Below are positions 48,301 through 63,444 of a stretch of DNA of 64,000 nt, in pieces (the first letter of the stretch is position 1; each line of letters starts with the position of its first letter). The DNA lies in IMG/VR virus record IMGVR_UViG_3300017987_005501; one strand, given 5' to 3'. This DNA comes from a virus (lineage: Duplodnaviria > Caudoviricetes). The notes below the pieces were generated by a model that was given only the letters and a program-made list of their open reading frames with translations, was not told the origin of the DNA and did not search any database. The translations under genes were made by a program, and so were the position numbers.

Positions 48301-48348
48301 TCTATCCTATTAGAAAGAGTGTATAAATAACAAAAAGGTATTATTCTT

Positions 48349-49920
48349 ATGGAAGGTCTATTTTCACAACCAAATTTTTATCTCAATATTATTCAAGAAA
48401 TTCTTAATAGCTTAAAAGAGGAAAAACCTACTGTTGATTTGCTAAAGCAATTTAAGATTTCAGAACTACACAGAGCTGCTATAATGTTCCGAGATTTAGA
48501 CCCAAAGTATCAGCCTATTAAAAATAAGGTATCTAAAGCAGTTAAACGGCTCCTTACCAATTCAAAAGGATATAAAGCTAATAGGGAAGGGTTTAAAAAG
48601 GCATTAGTTACTCTTTATAACCTTGATAAAAAATTAAATGCGGATGTTATTAATGATACTGCTACCCTAATTAGCACAGCAAAACCCAAAAAGGACGAGG
48701 GAGAAGCAAATTATTGGGAGGATACAGAAAGAATAAATACTTCTCTCAAAGTATCTGTCTATAATTGGAGGGATGTTCTTAAGTTTGCGGCAAAAAAGAA
48801 AAAGAAAAATCTTGGCGAATTAGAGACCAAACTTAAAAAAGATAAAAATTTAGGTGGGGCTCTTGATCTATCCGGAGAGGCGGCGGAAGCAATAAAGCCG
48901 AAGGTAGAACCAGAAGCTGAAGAGGTAGAAAAACCAAAAAAGCTGGATATCGAAATTAAAGAAGAAGAAAAACCAGAAGATCCTTTGGAGACGACGGAAC
49001 AAAAAGAGGAAGAAACAGAATCCGATAATAAATACGAAGAGTTTAAGGATCACTTAGATAAATTAAACCCAAATAGGGCAGCAATAAAGAAAATCTTAAA
49101 AGAAAAAGACTGGGAAGACCTATTAGATATCGCTTTGGACGAAGAGGCACCCCCAGAGATCAAGGGTGAAGTTATTCCTGCTCTCTTTGAACGCCCCGAG
49201 AGCGATATTCTTCAATTCTCTAAATCTGAAAAACTAGATTCAGGTATATTAAGAGCTCTCTATAACCAAGCTTCTAATTATGAACGAAATTGGAGGGTTC
49301 GAAAAGCAGTGGCTGAACATAAAAATGCACCCAAAGAAGTTATTTTAAAAGCTGCCCAAGATAACGATTACAGAGTTAGGCTTGGAGCTGCGGGAAACCC
49401 AGAGCTTGATAATCCAGAAATTATTAAAAAATTAATAAAAGACACAAATTCGGAGGTAAGAGAAGAGTTAATTCGTAACCCGCATACCCCGGAAAAGTTT
49501 ATTTCTAAATTATATGATCGGATTCGCGGCCAAAAAGGTATTCAGTCCTACGAAGACAAAGTAATTTTATTATCTCAACATAAGAATTTATCAGGGGAGC
49601 AGCTCCTCGAGCTTTTAATTGATGCTGCGGAAGATCTAAAATTAGATAAAAAATTAAGATGGAAAGACCCTAAACTCCGCTCTGTAAGAAAAGACTCCAT
49701 TTCTCTCCAAATTGTAATTAATATTGCTAATAATTCTGGATTAGACCCAAGGGTTTACGCAATACTCGGAACTAGTATACGGCCAGAAATTAAAATGGCT
49801 GTTGCTAATAATGCAGCAGCACCAAAACACCTATTAGAAACATTAACAAAAGATTCTGACCTTGGGGTTTCTGCTGCCGCAAAGCAAACTCTTGAAAAAA
49901 TTACAGAAAATAAGGGCTAG
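48349..49920 (+). CDS. Protein with leucine-rich-variant/HEAT-like repeats
   Basis: Repeats such as WRVRKAVAEHKNAP, YRVRLGAAGNP, EVREELIRNPHTP, EIKMAVANN. Confidence 0.65.
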   Translation: MEGLFSQPNFYLNIIQEILNSLKEEKPTVDLLKQFKISELHRAAIMFRDLDPKYQPIKNKVSKAVKRLLTNSKGYKANREGFKKALVTLYNLDKKLNADVINDTATLISTAKPKKDEGEANYWEDTERINTSLKVSVYNWRDVLKFAAKKKKKNLGELETKLKKDKNLGGALDLSGEAAEAIKPKVEPEAEEVEKPKKLDIEIKEEEKPEDPLETTEQKEEETESDNKYEEFKDHLDKLNPNRAAIKKILKEKDWEDLLDIALDEEAPPEIKGEVIPALFERPESDILQFSKSEKLDSGILRALYNQASNYERNWRVRKAVAEHKNAPKEVILKAAQDNDYRVRLGAAGNPELDNPEIIKKLIKDTNSEVREELIRNPHTPEKFISKLYDRIRGQKGIQSYEDKVILLSQHKNLSGEQLLELLIDAAEDLKLDKKLRWKDPKLRSVRKDSISLQIVINIANNSGLDPRVYAILGTSIRPEIKMAVANNAAAPKHLLETLTKDSDLGVSAAAKQTLEKITENKG

Positions 49921-52492: not shown

Positions 52493-52849
52493 ATGACTAA
52501 GAAAAAACTTTCAACTATGCTCTTTCGAATCGCATCTGCTATTGAAGCTGATTTCGGGGTAATAGTTCCACCAATGGCACAACCTGTTAATGAAATTGAT
52601 TTTATCCGGGACCAAACAGGACCGCATGGGCAGGGGATGGGCCCAGGAAAAGGTCAAGGTTGTGGTTGTACACAAATGGAAGAAGCAGTGGAAGATGTTG
52701 GGACTTTAAGGATTAGGGAACAAGTAACTAATACCTTAAATAAATACGGAATTGATTGGAGCCAAGATATGGTTAACGAATTAGTTAATTTAATGAAACA
52801 GCCCGAAATAGAAGAACCTGTTATTCCAGCAAATCCCCTTGAACTATAG
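52493..52849 (+). CDS. Small candidate head protein
   Basis: N-terminal KLSTMLFRIASAIEA; late motif at 52424. Confidence 0.5.
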   Translation: MTKKKLSTMLFRIASAIEADFGVIVPPMAQPVNEIDFIRDQTGPHGQGMGPGKGQGCGCTQMEEAVEDVGTLRIREQVTNTLNKYGIDWSQDMVNELVNLMKQPEIEEPVIPANPLEL

Positions 52850-53043
52850 AAAAAACTTTTACCTCTAAACCCTTTCTAGTTTATCCCTGGTCTATTCAAT
52901 TCTCTGCCTTTTCTAAAGCATCCAAAATTTGTTTGTTACTAAATTGATCGTATTTTGACATTTCTTTTTAATAATTCATTAATACTTTGTTTGTTTTAAA
53001 TGAGATTCCGTCTCTAAATAATACTCGAGAAAAGGAAAGAAGT

Positions 53044-54033
53044 ATGAGTTTTATAAAAACTGCAGCAGCAAAAATCGTTAAAGGTCATGAGAGTATCTCA
53101 GTTGAGGATTGGCTAAAAATAGCGGGTAAAGGATCCTTTAATAGTAGAGTTGCTTCTAGAGTTATTAAAAATTACGATCCAGATAAATATCTATTAACCC
53201 ATTGCACGATCATCGCCTCGGTGAACATAGATGATCGTGTCCCCCATTATATTACCCCAGAGACTGAACAGTTTGTTAATAACAATTATGATAGCTGGGA
53301 ATCAGGACTTTTATCGAAGCCAGATGTCTATAAGTCTTTTGAAGGCGCGTACAACTATTTGGAGCATGTACAAGTCCCCAGCCTCGCAAAAGGAAAAGTT
53401 ATCGGAGCAGCCCTAAGAGAGGTGCCTCTCGATAATACAAAGGATCCGGTTTATTTTGTCGATATCTTAGTTGCTACCGATAAGAAGCATTCTGGCTTAA
53501 TCAGCAAAATTAGCTCGGGCCAACTTAATACCTTATCAATGGGTTGCCAAGTTGCCTATACATATTGCTCTAAATGTGGGCATAAAGCTTTCGATGAAAC
53601 CGATTTATGTAATCATATTAAGTACCAAAAAGGAAATCATTTTATTGATGAATTTGGTAAGAGGAGAATTATTGCAGAGCTTTGTGGGCATAAAAAAGAC
53701 CCTTCTTCCGTAAGATTTATCGAGGCTTCTTGGGTAGCTATCCCTGCTTTTTCTGGAGCTGTTTTAAGAAATATTTTAACATTCCAAAATAATGAAGTTG
53801 GAAAAGTAGCAAAACAAAAATATGCAAGGTTAATTGAAGATGCATATAGCATAGACCCAACAGAAGGATTAGAAAATCTTATGAAAGCTGCTTCTACCGT
53901 TAAGGTGGCTTCGACTTCAAATCCTGCAGATCTCGTTCGAAAACTAGAAAATGTTTTCAACAGCCTTAATAATAGAACTCTCCCAAATAAGCTAGCAAGC
54001 ATAGCATCTGAGATTACGAAATTCAAAGGATAA
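53044..54033 (+). CDS. Prohead (capsid maturation) protease
   Basis: YLEH, VDILVA, LSMGC (catalytic Ser), CSKCG...CNH, FIEASWV.PAF. Upstream of scaffold and MCP. Start ATG 53044. Confidence 0.85.
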   Translation: MSFIKTAAAKIVKGHESISVEDWLKIAGKGSFNSRVASRVIKNYDPDKYLLTHCTIIASVNIDDRVPHYITPETEQFVNNNYDSWESGLLSKPDVYKSFEGAYNYLEHVQVPSLAKGKVIGAALREVPLDNTKDPVYFVDILVATDKKHSGLISKISSGQLNTLSMGCQVAYTYCSKCGHKAFDETDLCNHIKYQKGNHFIDEFGKRRIIAELCGHKKDPSSVRFIEASWVAIPAFSGAVLRNILTFQNNEVGKVAKQKYARLIEDAYSIDPTEGLENLMKAASTVKVASTSNPADLVRKLENVFNSLNNRTLPNKLASIASEITKFKG

Positions 54034-54036
54034 AAT

Positions 54037-56121
54037 ATGAAAAAGATTCAAGCTCGGAGAATTAAAACTGCTCAACCTCCAGAAGAAGCCGCACCAGACC
54101 TTGGTGGAGAAGGAGGAGATCTTGATCTCGGGGGTGGTGAATTAGATCTTGGAGGTCTCGGGGGTGGTGGTCTTGATTTAGGTGGGGGAGGAGAAGAACC
54201 CCCAGCAGAATCAGAAGCTCCCTCCGAAGAAGGCTCCGAAGTTGAAAATATAATGTCAAAGCTCGAGGAGAAGCTTCTTAAACGAGTAATGAATCGTATC
54301 CTCGAAGCTTTAGCTACAGACGAAGCTAAGAATCAATTCTCAGACGCTCTCTTTAGCGTCGATAGGATTAATGATTCTTTAGTCGTTTCTAGCGAAAACG
54401 TGTTAAAGCAACTTAGACCTTATAGATCCGTATTTAAGTATATAAAGAGAGATGGAATTAGACCTACTCTTGAAAACCTTAAACCGCAACATCTTAAAAG
54501 ATTTGCTTCCTTAATTAATAAACTTGATTCTTACTTTGGGGCGAAACACATGGATATTAAAACTGCAGCTAAGAACCTAAATAATTTAAGCGCGAAACTC
54601 AAGAGAATTGCAGCTTATCAAGATTATGACCCAATTCCAGAGGATGCTTTATCCGATAGACAAAAATTAAAACTTGATAACGTCTGGACACTAATCACCC
54701 ATCGCTTTAGAAGTGGGGAAGGGCCAGATTATGTTGTTCTTAAAGGGCCACCAGCCGGGAAAGAAACGGTTTGGCTTGAAAACCTAGATAACCTTGGAAC
54801 AGAACAACAGCTTCACCCAGCATTATTTCATGGAAGAGCAGCACCAGGTGCCCAATTTAAGAGTGATGTGAAACCAGTTGGTCTCCATGACGTTAAAGAC
54901 GAATCTGGAAAGACTAAACAAATTGGGATTAATTTCTCAGAACAAGCAGTTAATCGCCTTAGAGGCAAGATCCATGACATTTACAAACAAGATCCTTTTA
55001 TTGCCCATTCTTTTAATCAAATTAATACCTTTAATACTTTGATGAATGAGTATATGCGGATGATTGAAGTACCACGTATTTTTGAAGAATGGAAAAAATT
55101 AAGAGAAGTTTTCAAAATTGTGAAAGAAGGAGGAGAAGCATTAAAGGGAGCAGAAAAGACCCTCGAAAAGATTATGGGTTGGCACCTCCAGCGTAATTCT
55201 ACTTCAGAAAAAGAAAGAAAACGCTATCAAAAGGGAGATTTTAAAACTAAGAACATGCTTTATATTAAAAAAGCAGTTGATGAGCTTAAACAAGCGATTC
55301 GAAAGTTAGTCACGCCCCCAACAACAGATTTCAAAGCAATTAATCGTCTATATAAAGAATTCTATCCAAGGATAAACCTACGTCTTTTGGATAAAGAAGA
55401 AAAAAACCCAGTCACAGAAATAAATAATCTCCTAGAGGTTATTGGTGCCCTCCAACAAGCATGGCTCGAATGGTTCTCAGACCTTCGTAGATATGAAATT
55501 AAAGAGTTAATCCTTGGCGAAAGGCCACTCACAGAGCTTACAGAACCTTTTGGAGAGCTCGCTGGAGAAGTTTCTCAATACCTAGAAACAAGTAAAAAAC
55601 CCTTAGCAGAAGCTAGGGGAGGTGGAGACTGGTTTAAAAGTTATAAATATTATGAGAAATTGTTAGAAAAGATTTCCGAGCTTTATCCTAAGATTTATGA
55701 AGATGCCCAAGAGCTTGATAAGCGCCAAGAAGAATTAGTTGGCATTAATCCCGGATATCAAAAGTTTCTTGATACGTATTATGGAACCCCAAATGCGTTA
55801 ATGAATAGCTTACCCCTAGTGGGAAGCGAAAGCCTTACATTAAATAATGCAGAAGGATATAAAAAAGCATTTCTAGTTATTGCAACGCTCGCAAAAGAAT
55901 TACATAAGGTAGCAGAGGTTATTATTAATCAGGATCCAATTAAATCCGTACCAATGCCTAAGGCGCTTACTATTGAAACAGCAGGTAATTTACCTATTGA
56001 AGCAATCGAGCAAGAACTAGAAACGGAAGAAAAAAGAACCGATTGGTCTGGAATAGCAGAAACAGATTTCGATGCTTCAGCGTATGACGATCTTGACTTA
56101 GAAGATGAGGAGATTAAGTAG
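54037..56121 (+). CDS. Head-associated protein with Gly/acidic scaffold-like N-terminus and unknown C-terminal domain
   Basis: RIKTA, GGDLDLGGG repeats, KTAA, KRIAA; lies between protease and scaffold. Confidence 0.55.
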   Translation: MKKIQARRIKTAQPPEEAAPDLGGEGGDLDLGGGELDLGGLGGGGLDLGGGGEEPPAESEAPSEEGSEVENIMSKLEEKLLKRVMNRILEALATDEAKNQFSDALFSVDRINDSLVVSSENVLKQLRPYRSVFKYIKRDGIRPTLENLKPQHLKRFASLINKLDSYFGAKHMDIKTAAKNLNNLSAKLKRIAAYQDYDPIPEDALSDRQKLKLDNVWTLITHRFRSGEGPDYVVLKGPPAGKETVWLENLDNLGTEQQLHPALFHGRAAPGAQFKSDVKPVGLHDVKDESGKTKQIGINFSEQAVNRLRGKIHDIYKQDPFIAHSFNQINTFNTLMNEYMRMIEVPRIFEEWKKLREVFKIVKEGGEALKGAEKTLEKIMGWHLQRNSTSEKERKRYQKGDFKTKNMLYIKKAVDELKQAIRKLVTPPTTDFKAINRLYKEFYPRINLRLLDKEEKNPVTEINNLLEVIGALQQAWLEWFSDLRRYEIKELILGERPLTELTEPFGELAGEVSQYLETSKKPLAEARGGGDWFKSYKYYEKLLEKISELYPKIYEDAQELDKRQEELVGINPGYQKFLDTYYGTPNALMNSLPLVGSESLTLNNAEGYKKAFLVIATLAKELHKVAEVIINQDPIKSVPMPKALTIETAGNLPIEAIEQELETEEKRTDWSGIAETDFDASAYDDLDLEDEEIK

Positions 56122-58116: not shown

Positions 58117-59073
58117 ATGTCACTTAACTGTACTCCTAATAACATGGTAATGGTCCCTAAATCGATGGTCCCGGGTTTCGGTGGTCAAGATTCCACCCCC
58201 GCCCAGGCAGCTGACCCTAATGTCAAGAGCGCTATCATTAGCGAATACATTAAGACAGCCGCCGGTCGTCGTAAGCTCGCTGCATCCATGATTCAGCCCT
58301 TACGTAGCCGTCGTGACTATACCGCCGTGGGTCGCAAGACCTTCTTGGTAGAACAGCTTCCCGATGGGGCACTTCCTATTTATGATAGGGACCCCGAAGC
58401 AGTCGCTTATGTTATTGGTGAAGAAGGTGAAAATATCATCGCTGTGCAAAAGCCAAAGCGCGTGATCTTCCCACTCTTCGAAATCGCCAGTAACCCAGAG
58501 ATCCCACTAACCCAAATCAAAGAACGCAGATTTGATCTAATTGAAAGAGCGCAAGACCTCGCTAAGGCTGAAATTCAAGCCGAAGAAGATACGAGAGTCT
58601 TTGAGATCATGGATGCAGTCCAAGATGCCGGGTTCATGGGTGTTCCACCTAATCCCGATATCCCAGTAGTCGCCCCAATCACCGCAGATGTCCTAGCTGA
58701 TGCTTTCGCTGATATCGAGCAAGAAGACCTTCGCGTCGCTCGCTTGTACTTCAACGCAAAGGATTATTCCGATATCCGTAAGTGGGGGAGAGACATCCTA
58801 GATATTGAGAGTCAAGCAACTCTATTGAAGACCGGTCTTCAGGCAACCCTCTGGGGCGCTCAGTTGATCGTAAGTCGTAGAGTTCCCGTTGGTCGCGTGT
58901 ATGTGTGTGCCGAACCTGAATTCCTCGGCCGCATCCCAGTCCGCACCGAGCTCACAGTACTCAGTGCTGATGATCCTCGCGCACGTACCATTGGATTCTC
59001 GATCTTCGAGAATTTAGGGATAGGCATACATAATCCCTTCGGTCTCAGTAGACTCCTTATTACCCGCTCCTAA
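58117..59073 (+). CDS. Major capsid protein (HK97 fold, large-myovirus type)
   Basis: PLRSRRDY, LPDGALPIYDRD, FEIASNP, RRFDLIERAQ...IQAEED..VF, LWGA..IVS..VP, ENLGIGIHNP. Confidence 0.9.
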   Translation: MSLNCTPNNMVMVPKSMVPGFGGQDSTPAQAADPNVKSAIISEYIKTAAGRRKLAASMIQPLRSRRDYTAVGRKTFLVEQLPDGALPIYDRDPEAVAYVIGEEGENIIAVQKPKRVIFPLFEIASNPEIPLTQIKERRFDLIERAQDLAKAEIQAEEDTRVFEIMDAVQDAGFMGVPPNPDIPVVAPITADVLADAFADIEQEDLRVARLYFNAKDYSDIRKWGRDILDIESQATLLKTGLQATLWGAQLIVSRRVPVGRVYVCAEPEFLGRIPVRTELTVLSADDPRARTIGFSIFENLGIGIHNPFGLSRLLITRS

Positions 59074-59198: not shown

Positions 59199-60722
59199 AT
59201 GTTATCAAAAGAACAATTAGAAGAAGAGATTAAGTTAGGGTTAACAGACAAACAAATTGCAGAGAAATATAACATCCCAAAATTTAGAACGGTTAAAAAT
59301 CTTAGGAAAAAATATGGGATCGGGAAGAAGCAAGAAAAGATACCAAAAGCAGAACTTGCTGAAGATATTAAAAATTTATCTATAGACGAAATTGCTAAAA
59401 AACACTCAAGAACTCTGAAAAGAATTAAAGAGTTACTACGTGGGTACGAGATAGAATATGACATAAAAAATAAACCAGTTAGTTTTAGTGTTTCTGATAT
59501 TGAAAAGATTAAGGAATTAGTTGAGGCAGGCAAATCTGACGAAGAAATCGCTCTTTCATTTAATCTTCCAAAAACTAAATGGACTAGTATCCGTCATGTT
59601 CGTTTAAAGAAACTTAATATTAAAAAACGTGTTCCAAACAATACAGCGGATAAAGAAAAAATTCGAAAAGGCTTCGAATCAAAGAAATCGGATCAAGAAT
59701 TAGCGGGCGAATTAGGGGTAAAGGAAGGCACTATTGCCTCTGCTCGTCAAAAACTCGGCTTATTTGTCGAGCGAGATATTCATAAGGTAACAAAAACCGT
59801 TTTAGAAAAGTACTATGTTGAGTGGGGGTGGACAGACCAAGAAATTGCTGATTTTCTTGGAATAGAGCATAATAGGGTTTGGGAAGCTCGGAAAAAATAC
59901 AATATAAATCGGACAATGAAATGGCAGAAGCTAAATCTTCCCATTGATTTCACTAAGGAACAAAAAGATTTAGTTTATGGAAGTTTATTAGGAGATTCCT
60001 CCATTAGTAAAGTTGCGGCTTCTTCTTATGAACTTTTTTGTGCCCACGCAAATAAGCAAAAAAATTACACAAGACTAAAGGCTATAATTCTTGATAAGTT
60101 TGCAAGAAATTTTAAACATCGAAAACATGATGACATGTACGAAGTGAGATCCTACTCTCATCCATTAATTAAAGAACTTTATGATATCTACTACCCTAAT
60201 TCAACTGGAAACAAAAGAACAGTCTTCCCGGACGAAATATTAGACGAATTTACATTAGAAATGCTTGTCTATTGGTATTTTGATGATGGCTGGATCGAGA
60301 AATCTAATGAAGTTAAAAGAACTCCTGTGATTGGGTCCGCATTTGATTTCAACAATCAAAAACTGCTCATCGAAACTCTTTGGAAAAAATATAAACTAAA
60401 AATAGGATTTGAGCCAACAAAACAGACTCTCAAAACTCAAAAATACTTCTCAAAAATTAGACTTTATGTAAACTCAGATTTACTTGATATTATCAAAAAC
60501 CTAGCGCCTGAGTGTTTAGAATATAAAATCCCAGATGAAATACATCCACAAGCCGAACTTTCTGGGGATTTTGATCATATAGACGACCAAACAGGATATG
60601 AAAAACGAACTTGCCCTAAATGTGGGAACAAGTTCGTTATTGAATGGTACAAAGCTCAAAGATTCTGCTCAAGGACTTGCCAAAGTCGGTTTAATTATCA
60701 ACTTTCTCAAGAGTCCCTTTAA
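59199..60722 (+). mobile_element. Free-standing LAGLIDADG homing endonuclease with about 5 N-terminal HTH repeats and C-terminal Zn finger
   Basis: VYGSLLGDSS and LVYWYFDDG motifs; repeated (T/S)D.EIA HTH units; CPKCG...FCSRTCQ. Confidence 0.8.
60648..60693. repeat. 46-bp direct repeat copy 1 (copy 2 at 61405-61450, partial copy at 62752-62787)
   Basis: TACAAAGCTCAAAG(A/G)TTCTGCTCAAG(G/A)ACTTGCCAAAGTCGGTTTA, 2 mismatches. Confidence 0.95.
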
Positions 60723-61356
60723 CTTTTATATTAGTTCTTATATCTTTCGGGTTCTTAGGCATAAAAGAAAAAGTAAACTTATAATCCTCGTCTTCGGCTT
60801 TTTGATAAAGTACGTCTAACGTTTTTTCAATATCAGAAACCGTAGTATTATAACTTCCAAAGCTTAAAACAAAATGAATAATATTTTGATAGGCGCCAAC
60901 TCTATCAACATCGAAAGAAAGTAGTGCTCCTTCTTTTTCCGTTTGTCTGAAATGTCCTGGCAAGCCAAAAGAACCTCTTTCCCCAAACCCCGCCTCCTCC
61001 CTATATCCAAAGGATTCTAATAAATCATAAAATTTATCTTTTACTGGTTTAGTTATCCTTAAAAATTCTGATATGTTTCTAATTATGCCTCTCTTCTCTA
61101 AATCTGGAAGTTCAAAATAAGAAAAATTAGCTACAGAACCATCTTTGGAAGATTGAAAAATGATTTCATCTCCATTATATCCAATGATTTTATAAGGTTC
61201 TGTTACCTCTTGTAATTGACCTCGCATTCGACCTCGAGAGCCTAAAGAGATTATTTCCCCAATAGGGTATTTTTTCTTAATTTCTTCTGGTATATTATTT
61301 TCATTCGCACTCTTCAAAAACTGTGCGATTTTAATAAGCTTGGCTGATAATTTCAT
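60691..61356 (-). CDS. Cassette gene A, candidate internal head protein
   Basis: Starts MKLSAKLIKIA; own GGAG RBS and late-like motif. Confidence 0.6.
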   Translation of the reverse strand: MKLSAKLIKIAQFLKSANENNIPEEIKKKYPIGEIISLGSRGRMRGQLQEVTEPYKIIGYNGDEIIFQSSKDGSVANFSYFELPDLEKRGIIRNISEFLRITKPVKDKFYDLLESFGYREEAGFGERGSFGLPGHFRQTEKEGALLSFDVDRVGAYQNIIHFVLSFGSYNTTVSDIEKTLDVLYQKAEDEDYKFTFSFMPKNPKDIRTNIKVKGTLEKVDN

Positions 61357-61406
61357 CTCAAATACTCCTTAAAAACTATTTCTAATAACTAATTATTAAA
61401 ACAATA
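61324..61406. repeat. Duplicated promoter/RBS/N-terminal coding block (copy 2 at 62642-62749)
   Basis: TTTCATCTCAAATACTCC...TTAAAAACTATTTCTAATAACTAA(T/C)TATTAAAACAATA shared. Copy 2 has an extra 18-bp tandem duplication. Confidence 0.93.
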
Positions 61407-61447
61407 CAAAGCTCAAAGGTTCTGCTCAAGAACTTGCCAAAGTCGGT

Positions 61448-62674
61448 TTAGTTATTCTTAGCAAACTCTTTTTCAATATTGCCAATTAGTTCCATTAAAA
61501 TAACAGTGAAGAATTTTTGGATTGTTTCCGATATATTGAAAACTTTATATTTCTTTAACATATAATCTCTAAATTTTCTAAAACTTGACATATCTTTTAA
61601 CATCAATATTGCTCCCTGTTTTGCTTTAAGCGCGAGACCTCCTCCAAAAGTCTTCGCATACTCTAGCATCGTTCCAAGGAGCTTTTCTCTTAAAATAAGT
61701 AATGCCCTATGGAGATTTCCTTCTTTTAAGGCGGTATTAAATTGAGGATCTTTTTCTACCATATCTGTTGCCGTATAATATATAACCTTAACTAAATCTT
61801 TAAAGTCATTCATATTATACCCACTCCGCCAATAATCTTCAAAGGAAGCTTTCCAAGTTTCTTCATCTGTGCTGCCTTCTTCAATTCTATAACTTTCTAG
61901 ATCTTCAATATCTAATTTTTTCTTAGATTTTAAAACCTTATAATAAGCATCTGTGACAAAACCGAGAAGGCTTTTTTCATAATCAGATAAATTCGAGTTT
62001 TTAATAGTTTCTTTAAGCTTCTCTACTGCTTGCACTAATTTTTCAATCTTATAATTCTTATCTTTATCTTTGAAAAACGAATTAACGTATTTTGTTGCTA
62101 ATGAAAGGACATTCTTCGATACTTCTTTAATAGTTTTTCCCTGTTTCGTTTGTGTAAAAAACATTTGGGTAATAGAATTAACAAGCTTTTGATTAAATAA
62201 TGTTTTTAAGAATGTTCGATGTTCGGGGTCTAAGTCTTTTGTTGCTTGAGAAACTAACGTATCTAAACCCCCTTCAATCTCTTCTTCAGTCTCTTCTTCC
62301 AAGTTACTTAGAATTAGGTTTATTAACCCTTTTAGATTAAAGCCCTTAAATTCTGGAACTTTACTTTCAATTTGCCTAATCGTTTCTTTATACTCTGGGT
62401 CTTTACTTCTAAATGTGGATATCTGGGATAAAACTTGGTTAAATTCACCCTTAAATCCTTGTTTAAGTTCGGATAAAAGTGTTTCAAGAACAAGCTCGAA
62501 GGCCATTTTTATTTTTCTGGGATTTTTTTTAATTCTTTCGTAGGCGGGGTCTTCCTTAAAATACTCAAACAATGCTTCGAAAGTCTCTACTAAGAATTCT
62601 TCAATTTCGTCTGTTTCAGCGAAATTAGCTTTTATTTGTTTTGCTATCTTAATAAGCTGGGTTGATAGTTTCAT
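61448..62674 (-). CDS. Cassette gene B, helical protein, candidate internal head protein
   Basis: Starts MKLSTQLIKIA; same upstream block as gene A. Confidence 0.6.
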   Translation of the reverse strand: MKLSTQLIKIAKQIKANFAETDEIEEFLVETFEALFEYFKEDPAYERIKKNPRKIKMAFELVLETLLSELKQGFKGEFNQVLSQISTFRSKDPEYKETIRQIESKVPEFKGFNLKGLINLILSNLEEETEEEIEGGLDTLVSQATKDLDPEHRTFLKTLFNQKLVNSITQMFFTQTKQGKTIKEVSKNVLSLATKYVNSFFKDKDKNYKIEKLVQAVEKLKETIKNSNLSDYEKSLLGFVTDAYYKVLKSKKKLDIEDLESYRIEEGSTDEETWKASFEDYWRSGYNMNDFKDLVKVIYYTATDMVEKDPQFNTALKEGNLHRALLILREKLLGTMLEYAKTFGGGLALKAKQGAILMLKDMSSFRKFRDYMLKKYKVFNISETIQKFFTVILMELIGNIEKEFAKNN

Positions 62675-62922
62675 CTCAAATACTCCAAATACCTCAAATA
62701 CTCCAAATCTCTTAAAAACTATTTCTAATAACTAACTATTAAAACAATATTAAACGAACTTGTCCCGAATGCGGTATAAAGCTCAAATAAATTTAAAAAA
62801 CATTATAGATGGGCTAAGAAAACGTATTATTTATAAATCGAATGTTCGCCGGATTATTCTAATGGGGGAGTTTTTTTTCATAAGTTTTAAGCTTTCGCAG
62901 GCGAGTAGGTGGAGGGCCAAGA

Positions 62923-63444
62923 ATGGTGACGAAACCGGAGCAAGAAAAAATAGCCGAATACGAAAAACTACGTAACGGAGGTTCGGTCGTCCGTTTTTGG
63001 CAGCTACCGCTGGAAGCGAAAGCTGCGCTAGCGTGGTACATGGCGTTCGACGGATGTGCATGGAAACTTCCACAATACCTGGAAAAAGAGTTCACGGTCA
63101 ATGATTTCGTTGATGTGGTACGAAAAGGAGGGTTCAACCGATACATGGATTTTCAGATTGGGTTCCACCCAGGGATTTCTGTCAAGGACTTAAAAAAATC
63201 CATGATGCAAGATAGTGACATAGAAAATGAACACGAGGACTTCAACCAGTACCATGAATGGTATCTAAACGTTGCGTGTCCGGTAGATCACGACGTCACC
63301 AAACCTCTGTGGCCAGTCATTCTCGGTGACCTACAAACTGACTACTTCGAAACATTGCAAGATGGGTGGCACCGTTTTCACTGCTACGTTCGGAATGGGA
63401 TCCAGAAAATACCTGCGCTCTATTTCCTGGGGGAGAACGAGTAA
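62923..63444 (+). CDS. Hypothetical protein with ParB/Srx-like C-terminal motif
   Basis: LQDGWHRF; visibly GC-richer than neighbours; RBS GGAGG. Confidence 0.45.
   Translation: MVTKPEQEKIAEYEKLRNGGSVVRFWQLPLEAKAALAWYMAFDGCAWKLPQYLEKEFTVNDFVDVVRKGGFNRYMDFQIGFHPGISVKDLKKSMMQDSDIENEHEDFNQYHEWYLNVACPVDHDVTKPLWPVILGDLQTDYFETLQDGWHRFHCYVRNGIQKIPALYFLGENE

Follow-up and report, generated by a model that had tools for sequence, protein, structure and literature searches.

Organization of the cassette array

IMG/VR virus record IMGVR_UViG_3300017987_005501 provides a 64-kb stretch of phage DNA (hereafter the window) in which the major capsid gene is followed by a free-standing LAGLIDADG homing endonuclease gene on the plus strand and by two minus-strand genes, c221 and c408, which form a small cassette array. 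Here we describe this array, the pieces of endonuclease coding sequence at its borders, and the N-terminal leader peptide that both cassette proteins share with other proteins of the same phage. Contigs of the phage were walked 21 kb past the right end of the window, giving a total of 85 kb. Contigs of this uncultured huge phage that bear the locus are up to 283 kb long, and a Phage-G-like huge marine phage is the best explanation of their source. Coordinates are collected in Table 1.

An earlier interpretation made without database searches, called here the sequence-only reading, had proposed two minus-strand genes of 221 and 408 amino acids with unrelated bodies between common flanks. The genes proved to be as described. 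BLASTP aligned only residues 1–16 of c221 and c408 (63% identity), which confines the similarity to the leader and shows that the bodies are not diverged paralogs over their full length. AlphaFold2 models of low confidence gave a mixed alpha/beta secondary structure for c221 and an all-helical one for c408; the mean predicted local distance difference test scores were 52 and 48, respectively, too poor for fold searches.

In each cassette, an AT-rich box, a ribosome-binding site and the leader codons precede a body of its own, and a 51-nt block with the stop codon closes the cassette. Comparison of the two copies bore out the 5' block with its ribosome-binding site and 11-residue start as well as the 3' block with its stop codon. 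Between the 5' copies, the 39-nt AT-rich box is 97% identical and a further 45 nt are 89% identical, and the 3' copies are 94% identical over 51 nt. The 5' block of c408 is about 25 nt longer than that of c221, with three tandem 9-nt units (pos. 62675–62710) that each contain GGAG or GAGG; counted as Shine-Dalgarno-like units, three precede c408 and one precedes c221. Both blocks occurred exactly twice in the window, with no match in 100 shuffles, and the whole 85 kb held only these two copies. The late-like motif that the sequence-only reading had placed within the 5' block was not found there: no T4-type TATAAATA lies in the block, and the nearest on that strand is at 62835–62828. Three further candidate signals were dropped. 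A scan of the 5' block found no sigma-70 promoter consensus, no intrinsic terminator was found between the two cassettes, and TAATAATT, considered as a specific promoter box, occurred 24 times in the window, mostly within genes.

Table 1 Features of the cassette region, the head module and the genes with leaders.
Feature	Position	Strand	Description
p118	52493..52849	+	small orphan, leader MTKKKLSTMLFRIASAIEADF; directly upstream of the head protease gene; own upstream region and codons
Head maturation protease	52987..54033	+	phrog_18299, E = 1e-13
p694	54037-56121	+	acidic 694-aa protein in scaffold position, between protease and capsid genes
Major capsid protein	58117..59073	+	phrog_2522, E = 1e-49
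LAGLIDADG homing endonuclease	59199..60722	+	free-standing, 507 aa; N-terminal helix-turn-helix (HTH) repeats, C-terminal zinc finger KRTCPKCG...YKAQRFCSRTCQSRFNYQLSQESL
Terminator-like hairpin	60604..60638	-	10-bp + 3-bp stem, then UUUUUCAUAU (U-run); ~50 nt past the c221 stop
3' block, copy 1	60648..60698		plus strand, endonuclease residues YKAQRFCSRTCQSRFNY; minus strand, last two codons and TAA of c221
c221	60691..61356	-	orphan protein, 221 aa, leader MKLSAKLIKIAQFLKSAN
5' block, copy 1	61324..61406	-	83 nt; AT-rich box 61368-61406, GGAG 61365-61368, 8-nt spacer, ATG + 11 leader codons 61324-61356
3' block, copy 2	61405..61455		last two codons and TAA stop of c408
c408	61448..62674	-	orphan protein, 408 aa, leader MKLSTQLIKIAKQIKANF
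5' block, copy 2	62642..62749	-	matches copy 1
Relic copy 3	62752..62787		abuts the 5' block; first zinc knuckle KRTCPECG, 22-nt deletion and frameshift, then GGTATAAAGCTCAAA (GIKLK-stop)
TATAAATA	62828..62835	-	T4-late-promoter-like octamer, 161 nt upstream of c408, outside the 5' block
r282	right of window		N-terminus MNLSTKLVKIA
r306	right of window		N-terminus MKLSTKLKKLA
r582	right of window		N-terminus MNKLAKQLYRLA
r253	right of window		N-terminus MNIPKHLFKIARQI, from Met11
r152	right of window		N-terminus MKCIAKLYRISKQL, start chosen by the gene caller
200-aa orphan	right of window		N-terminus MINRLFRIAKNIK
Ferritin-like protein	L101:6809-7357 (+), ~19 kb past right end of window	- (window)	182 aa, leader MDRHKLSLQLEKLANLI; PF00210, E = 6e-21
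Leader ORFs in L067	4953, 10969, 11385, 18686, 20234, 20694		six ORFs of a related phage
Leader ORFs in L078	10978, 19444, 20176		three ORFs with unrelated bodies

Endonuclease sequence at the cassette borders

The endonuclease gene is an uninterrupted open reading frame (ORF) that retains its LAGLIDADG catalytic domain (Pfam LAGLIDADG_2, PF03161, residues 258–410, E = 1e-15), as expected of a homing endonuclease. It also matched HTH_23 and a PHROG homing endonuclease family, and residues 464–503 gave matches to HNH-type C-terminal fingers. No close relative of the protein was found, the best match being 31% identical. The gene and c221 are convergent, with an overlap of 32 nt.

The sequence-only reading had connected the flanks to this neighbouring gene through a third, partial copy reading KRTCPECG, which mirrors the endonuclease finger. 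That copy was recovered on the plus strand (62752–62784 against 60603–60635, 76% identity), and the connection turned out to extend further, since the entire 3' block, read in reverse complement, is coding sequence for the second half of the endonuclease C-terminal zinc finger. On the plus strand, 3' block copy 2 reads YKAQRFCSRTCQSRFSYS followed by a stop (tblastn 68% over 25 aa), has stop codons just upstream and lacks the hairpin part. Judged by this reading frame, copy 2 is a dead relic of an endonuclease 3' end. It differs from copy 1 at three positions, two of them synonymous in the endonuclease frame, which, with so few changes, is a weak hint that copy 2 may once have belonged to a working endonuclease allele. 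In copy 3, half of the hairpin is deleted and the terminal GGTATAAAGCTCAAA corresponds to the beginning of the second half of the finger.

Along the plus strand, the order of elements is endonuclease with full finger, c221 reversed, 5' block reversed, second-half relic, c408 reversed, 5' block reversed and first-half relic; thus a piece of endonuclease 3' end borders each cassette. Because copies 2 and 3 are dead relics of the finger end, the cassette borders are read as probable recombination scars left by the ends of endonuclease genes.

The terminator-like hairpin lies in the codons of the first zinc knuckle of the endonuclease and is intact in that copy only. Its RNA fold has a free energy of -15.4 kcal/mol (z = -5.7), and none of 200 shuffles folded equally well; a simple terminator scan passed over it because the loop exceeded the limit of the scan. 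As the hairpin stands behind c221, is missing from relic 2 and is half gone from relic 3, c408 and c221 look like one transcription unit, which would end within the endonuclease gene. The octamer TATAAATA upstream of c408 is a possible promoter for this two-gene array. On the plus strand it occurs at 48322, 50589 and 52472, 21–44 nt upstream of the structural-region gene starts at 48349, 50633 and 52493, the last of these being p118 (21 nt). In total there were 12 occurrences in the window, five of them intergenic. A search for RNA runs carrying the locus listed none.

A leader peptide on ten proteins of the phage

The 11 residues shared by c221 and c408 are the start of a longer leader of about 18 residues, with the consensus MKLSTKLIKIAKQIKxxF, that is amphipathic and basic. 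Over the 85 kb, the leader core was N-terminal in 10 of 90 proteins and occurred at 3 internal sites among 25,050 positions (Fisher p = 3e-11, a generous value because the core pattern was set after seeing the data). The ten proteins are c221, c408, p118, r152, r253, r282, r306, r582, the 200-aa orphan and the ferritin-like protein; hence a single short N-terminal peptide heads mostly unrelated proteins of one phage, as does the T4 capsid targeting sequence. The tagged genes right of the window form a run on one strand.

The similarity among these proteins is largely limited to the leader. r306 and r582 are paralogous over 90 aa (E = 2e-10), and c221 aligned with r282, encoded 12 kb away, in two collinear high-scoring segment pairs (E = 0.004 and 0.009), by which c221 is a probable distant paralog of r282; the other tagged bodies are unrelated. 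In the ferritin-like protein, the Pfam domain starts only at residue 31 and the leader is an N-terminal add-on. This protein had no tblastn match in the phage collection. Conserved leader residues are encoded with synonymous codon differences, and the DNA upstream is unrelated except between c221 and c408, which argues for selection on the leader peptide itself. The enrichment at N-termini, the varied codons and the in-register counterpart in related phages (below) support the earlier proposal that the tag is a signal at the protein level.

All leaders of this phage contain [KR]-[IL]-[AS]. One of the three internal hits, NLSAKLKRIA (54583..54612, +), is located inside p694, and a segment of this protein, MDIKTAAKNLNNLSAKLKRIAAY, resembles both the leader and the N-terminal EYIKTAAGRRKLAAS of the capsid protein. 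The idea that the leader mimics the N-terminal helix of the capsid protein was dropped after hhalign gave no significant match. In IMG/VR, exact patterns of the 5' and 3' blocks and of the tag after back-translation had no hits. Twelve metagenome matches to the back-translated tag, from a collection that lacks this phage and so offers no positive control, look like chance, having no shared upstream DNA and short or unrelated ORFs, and were rejected.

Leaders and endonucleases in related phages

The capsid protein is 70–83% identical to those of 80 IMG/VR loci, some on contigs of 250–470 kb; identity falls to 48% with the capsid protein of Tunturiibacter phage Tunturi_5 and to 38% with Bacillus phage G gp27. 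In tblastx comparisons, synteny with the relatives covered the genes from protease to capsid and broke off exactly at the capsid stop codon. Besides the protease and p694, two further conserved proteins are encoded 5' of the capsid gene. Directly 3' of it, many, though not all, of the 80 relatives carry distantly related LAGLIDADG genes (23–34% identity), so that the homing site is variably occupied. Together with the end of synteny, this marks the 3' flank of the capsid gene as a homing hotspot and hyperplastic region. GC content falls from 0.42–0.46 in the capsid genes to 0.33 in the cassette region.

When the N-termini encoded at each related locus were compared with one another, leaders came to light in the relatives as well. 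In L067 (IMG/VR 3300021978_000001, 437 kb, with terminal repeats and rated complete), a leader of about 30 residues, M-DLKxQLIRLGNAxPELRxxLKPVIAxL, is common to six ORFs with unrelated bodies, and L078 has three such ORFs. One of the relatives' leader ORFs lies within the head module and two lie directly 3' of the capsid gene. Of the 13 leader matches in the complete genome (437 kb), at least 12 fall within about 15 kb of its capsid gene. Conservation among the L067 ORFs is confined to the 96 nt that encode the leader (80–84%), with identity at the random level on both sides. The leaders of the relatives end in K/R-Q-A. When the two leader families were matched by hhalign, MKLSTQLIKIAK and MDLKTQLIRLGN stood in register from the first residue (P = 8e-4, probability 25%). 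A 116-aa ORF (L034:19913-20263) bears the leader motif of the relatives twice, N-terminally (LVKLGRETPEMRKHLVPLL) and C-terminally (IHLAKTVPETRKFLVPLL).

In Phage G (NC_023719.1 3313-44131), 7 of 60 head-region proteins (gp13, 17, 20, 38, 53, 56 and 57) start with a KRLIKK-type motif, a 14-fold excess over internal sites (p = 1e-5, for a motif chosen post hoc). gp9 and gp10 look similar to the proteins headed by KRLIKK, and gp28, encoded directly after the capsid gene, has an N-terminal CxxC zinc finger. Phage G is a cultivated system in which the leader idea is testable.

Cargo identity and variation of the locus

Among 5.8 billion proteins, c221 and c408 each matched only themselves; c221 had no Pfam or PHROG match and no usable match in the ESM Atlas, and c408 matched no family. 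A profile of c221 and r282 searched against 1.84 billion representatives returned just the two queries. The two cargos are thus true orphans.

The sequence-only reading had further proposed that cargos are gained, lost or swapped through the repeats. No such event was seen. All assemblies with the locus agree at 100% identity, whether produced by the ENA, JGI or Logan pipelines and whether from 2018 sediment or 2021 seawater. Among the contigs of 4 runs, none joined across a cassette, and the array had no alternative joints. No diverged close relative with the locus was present in the collections searched. Runs X5 and X6 gave short pieces only, all 100% identical, and therefore contain this phage itself, at low cover, instead of a relative. 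Of the modular array as first proposed, two cassettes with unrelated bodies and conserved flanks stand, each flanking block being present in two copies, and variable cargo was not encountered. From the anatomy of the array, gain, loss or swap of cassettes can nevertheless reasonably be inferred. Logan contigs of two independent runs stop at 60781/60823 in c221, and that of a third run stops at 62711, at the edge of the 9-nt repeats; none of the breaks falls at a repeat of 31 nt or longer, and they may reflect micro-heterogeneity or low cover.

Comparison with known systems

In phage T4, a capsid targeting sequence is carried by the internal proteins IPI, IPII, IPIII and Alt (PMC3012670). The leader resembles it in that a short N-terminal peptide is the sole common part of diverse, fast-evolving small proteins and in its association with head-module genes, including the prohead protease gene. 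The T4 genes for gp67 and gp68 adjoin gene 21, much as the gene of a small tagged protein adjoins the protease gene here. Unlike the T4 sequence, the leader is basic and about 18 residues long, its packaging, cleavage and ejection are putative, and its set of proteins is larger and includes a ferritin-like enzyme; the phage itself belongs to the Phage-G-like lineage, with an HK97-type capsid protein of about 290 aa.

In T4-type phages, orphan genes are shuffled by PeSL mobile regulatory cassettes (Arbiol et al. 2010, PMC2839356; PMC4122927), and through recombination between PeSL modules genes can be gained, lost or exchanged. Here too, orphan genes in a hyperplastic region are parted by a repeated module, which resembles the PeSL composite of the stop codon of the upstream gene, a stem-loop, a promoter-like AT-rich box, a Shine-Dalgarno sequence and the start of the next gene. 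The stop block, Shine-Dalgarno sequence and start are repeated, and the stem-loop is intact in copy 1 only. Whereas PeSL occurs in dozens of copies across hyperplastic regions, the window and the 21 kb beyond it hold two copies of the present module; it is therefore not a genome-wide mobile motif of the PeSL kind. Further differences are that its block has no sigma-70 consensus, that no mini-circles or variants were observed, that the module reaches 33 nt into the coding region (the leader), and that its 3' half is reused endonuclease coding sequence.

Free-standing phage homing endonucleases such as those of the T4 seg and mob genes co-convert flanking markers. The intact LAGLIDADG gene resembles them in being intergenic and directly after a conserved, target-like capsid gene, at a place where relatives hold unrelated LAGLIDADG genes. 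It differs in that decayed 3' ends border cargo cassettes and that one 3' end doubles as the predicted terminator of a convergent array. Encapsulins offer another parallel: their cargo-loading peptides, usually C-terminal, address cargo, classically ferritin-like, into an HK97-fold shell. The present leader is likewise a short terminal peptide on unrelated proteins, one of them ferritin-like; unlike the encapsulin peptides it is N-terminal and has a different motif, and binding to the capsid protein is putative. As far as could be found, endonuclease relics that serve as cassette borders, one of them also as a terminator, are unreported, and so is a lineage-conserved leader in Phage-G-like huge phages.

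Proposed history of the array and destination of the leader

The reading we favour combines an origin for the cassettes with a function for the leader. The region 3' of the capsid gene is read as hypervariable and as a place where LAGLIDADG homing endonucleases land, and the array would have grown by unequal homologous recombination between endonuclease 3' ends and leader/promoter blocks. In the simplest history, a finger relic behind one cassette may have recombined with the finger of an endonuclease allele before another. Alternatively, a tandem duplication may have been followed by replacement of one body (allelic replacement), and in either history small deletions would have come later. 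Repair of endonuclease-made breaks during mixed infections is the likely trigger, and the process would be comparable to the shuffling of PeSL cassettes. The leader would be an address label, an analogue of the T4 capsid targeting sequence, that brings a private and fast-changing set of proteins to the assembling head, and the head protease may cut it at the conserved [KR]-[IL]-A. The packaging of the cargos, their injection and an anti-defence function, which the sequence-only reading proposed, may follow the same T4 model.

A capsid-targeting-like address is the best-supported function of the leader, because the leader is an add-on peptide on diverse proteins, is conserved in the lineage, and belongs to genes clustered at the head module beside the prohead protease. 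Within this phage it is tied to that module by p118, directly upstream of the protease gene, and by the array beside the capsid gene, with TATAAATA before both. Several observations weigh on the other side. Most tagged genes are opposite in strand to the head genes, the two blocks occur only twice in 85 kb, and the sequence of the leader is, to our knowledge, unlike the capsid targeting sequence of T4. The residue after [KR]-x-A is other than Ser or Ala in most leaders, the hhalign probability of homology between the two leader families is only 25%, and the array is invariant across all assemblies, so that ongoing shuffling is not demonstrated. Virion content, expression and cleavage are, moreover, extrapolated from sequence. 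Taken as a whole, the endonuclease-relic array with a head address label seems to us a little short of an even chance.

The evidence bears differently on readings that send the leader elsewhere or nowhere. With the same cassette history, the leader could be a handle for a destination outside the capsid, such as an in-plane membrane anchor, a tag for a Clp-type unfoldase (timed degradation or unfolding) or another phage compartment. As a cationic amphipathic helix whose hydrophobic positions are i, i+4, i+7 and i+11, with Lys on the opposite face, it has a form typical of binding to membrane surfaces, and most tagged genes run counter to the head genes, sharing an operon with a rhodanese gene and neighbouring metabolic genes. 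The tight clustering of tagged genes around the capsid gene in three phages points the other way, as do the tagged protein beside the head protease, the leader-like segment within the scaffold-positioned protein, and the sequences of c221 and c408, which have no transmembrane segment after the leader. We regard a non-capsid destination as rather unlikely. It is also unlikely, in our judgement, that the leader plays no part in targeting. In that case a structural helix common to the N-termini, or a module for starting translation, would have been passed on by duplication and domain shuffling within a growing pool of orphan genes, and the array would be a one-off local duplication with replacement, now fixed and static. 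Paralogy among tagged proteins (r306/r582, and probably c221/r282), similarity of c408, r152 and r253 that tapers over about 40 aa, the invariance of the array, and A/T-rich, Lys-rich first codons that would also aid translation initiation agree with that explanation. It is harder to reconcile with synonymous variation at conserved leader residues, a leader added before a complete ferritin-like domain, the sharp edges on both sides of the 96-nt leader segment of L067, which is joined to unrelated bodies, and conservation of the leader between phages that share only about 74% identity in their capsid proteins.

That the repeats are an assembly artefact, or that the ORFs are not genes, is highly improbable. 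The phage is known from metagenome assemblies alone, and the Logan contigs break in c221 and at 62711. Against an artefact, the three pipelines independently gave the same sequence in several samples, and the repeats are below assembler word size, with copies that differ by point changes; against non-genes, both ORFs are long and have strong GGAG-ATG starts in an AT-rich region. A broader version of the favoured address-label reading, possible though doubtful, would extend to Phage-G-like megaphages in general: a portable loading peptide, encapsulin-like, would fill the capsid or another phage-built compartment, and cargo would be captured between endonuclease relics that supply both recombination sites and a terminator. 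If so, private and rapidly turning-over orphan proteins and enzymes, including the ferritin-like protein, would be loaded in each phage.

Should the leader be a loading signal, the proteins that a whole lineage of huge phages packages or injects could be picked out by a simple rule from sequence. Most genes of these phages are orphans, and it is among such packaged or injected proteins that anti-defence and host-takeover functions are to be expected. The locus also illustrates how orphan genes could be added beside a conserved gene, with leftovers of homing endonucleases as recombination handles and one of them doubling as a terminator.

Other features of the region

p694 contains low-complexity repeats of Gly, Asp and Leu. 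At its N-terminus the capsid protein is about 28 aa longer (MSLNCTPNNMVMVPKSMVPGFGGQDSTPAQAADPN, window 58117-58200) than in 44 relatives, whose proteins start near SNEVKQQII; the extension is either a propeptide or the result of a mis-set start. Three genes (L098:6360-7892, L098:11722-12153 and window 62923-63444) have a GC content of 0.43–0.47, against 0.31–0.36 in the surrounding orphans, and may be host-derived morons in the hyperplastic region; one of them encodes a secreted-looking PDZ/DUF6288 protein of 510 aa. A lone ORF of 81 aa with a GIY-YIG domain (L098:10937-11182), between the gene of a 972-aa beta-helix-like structural protein and the tagged region, is a second remnant of a nuclease-type selfish element or a mini-nuclease.

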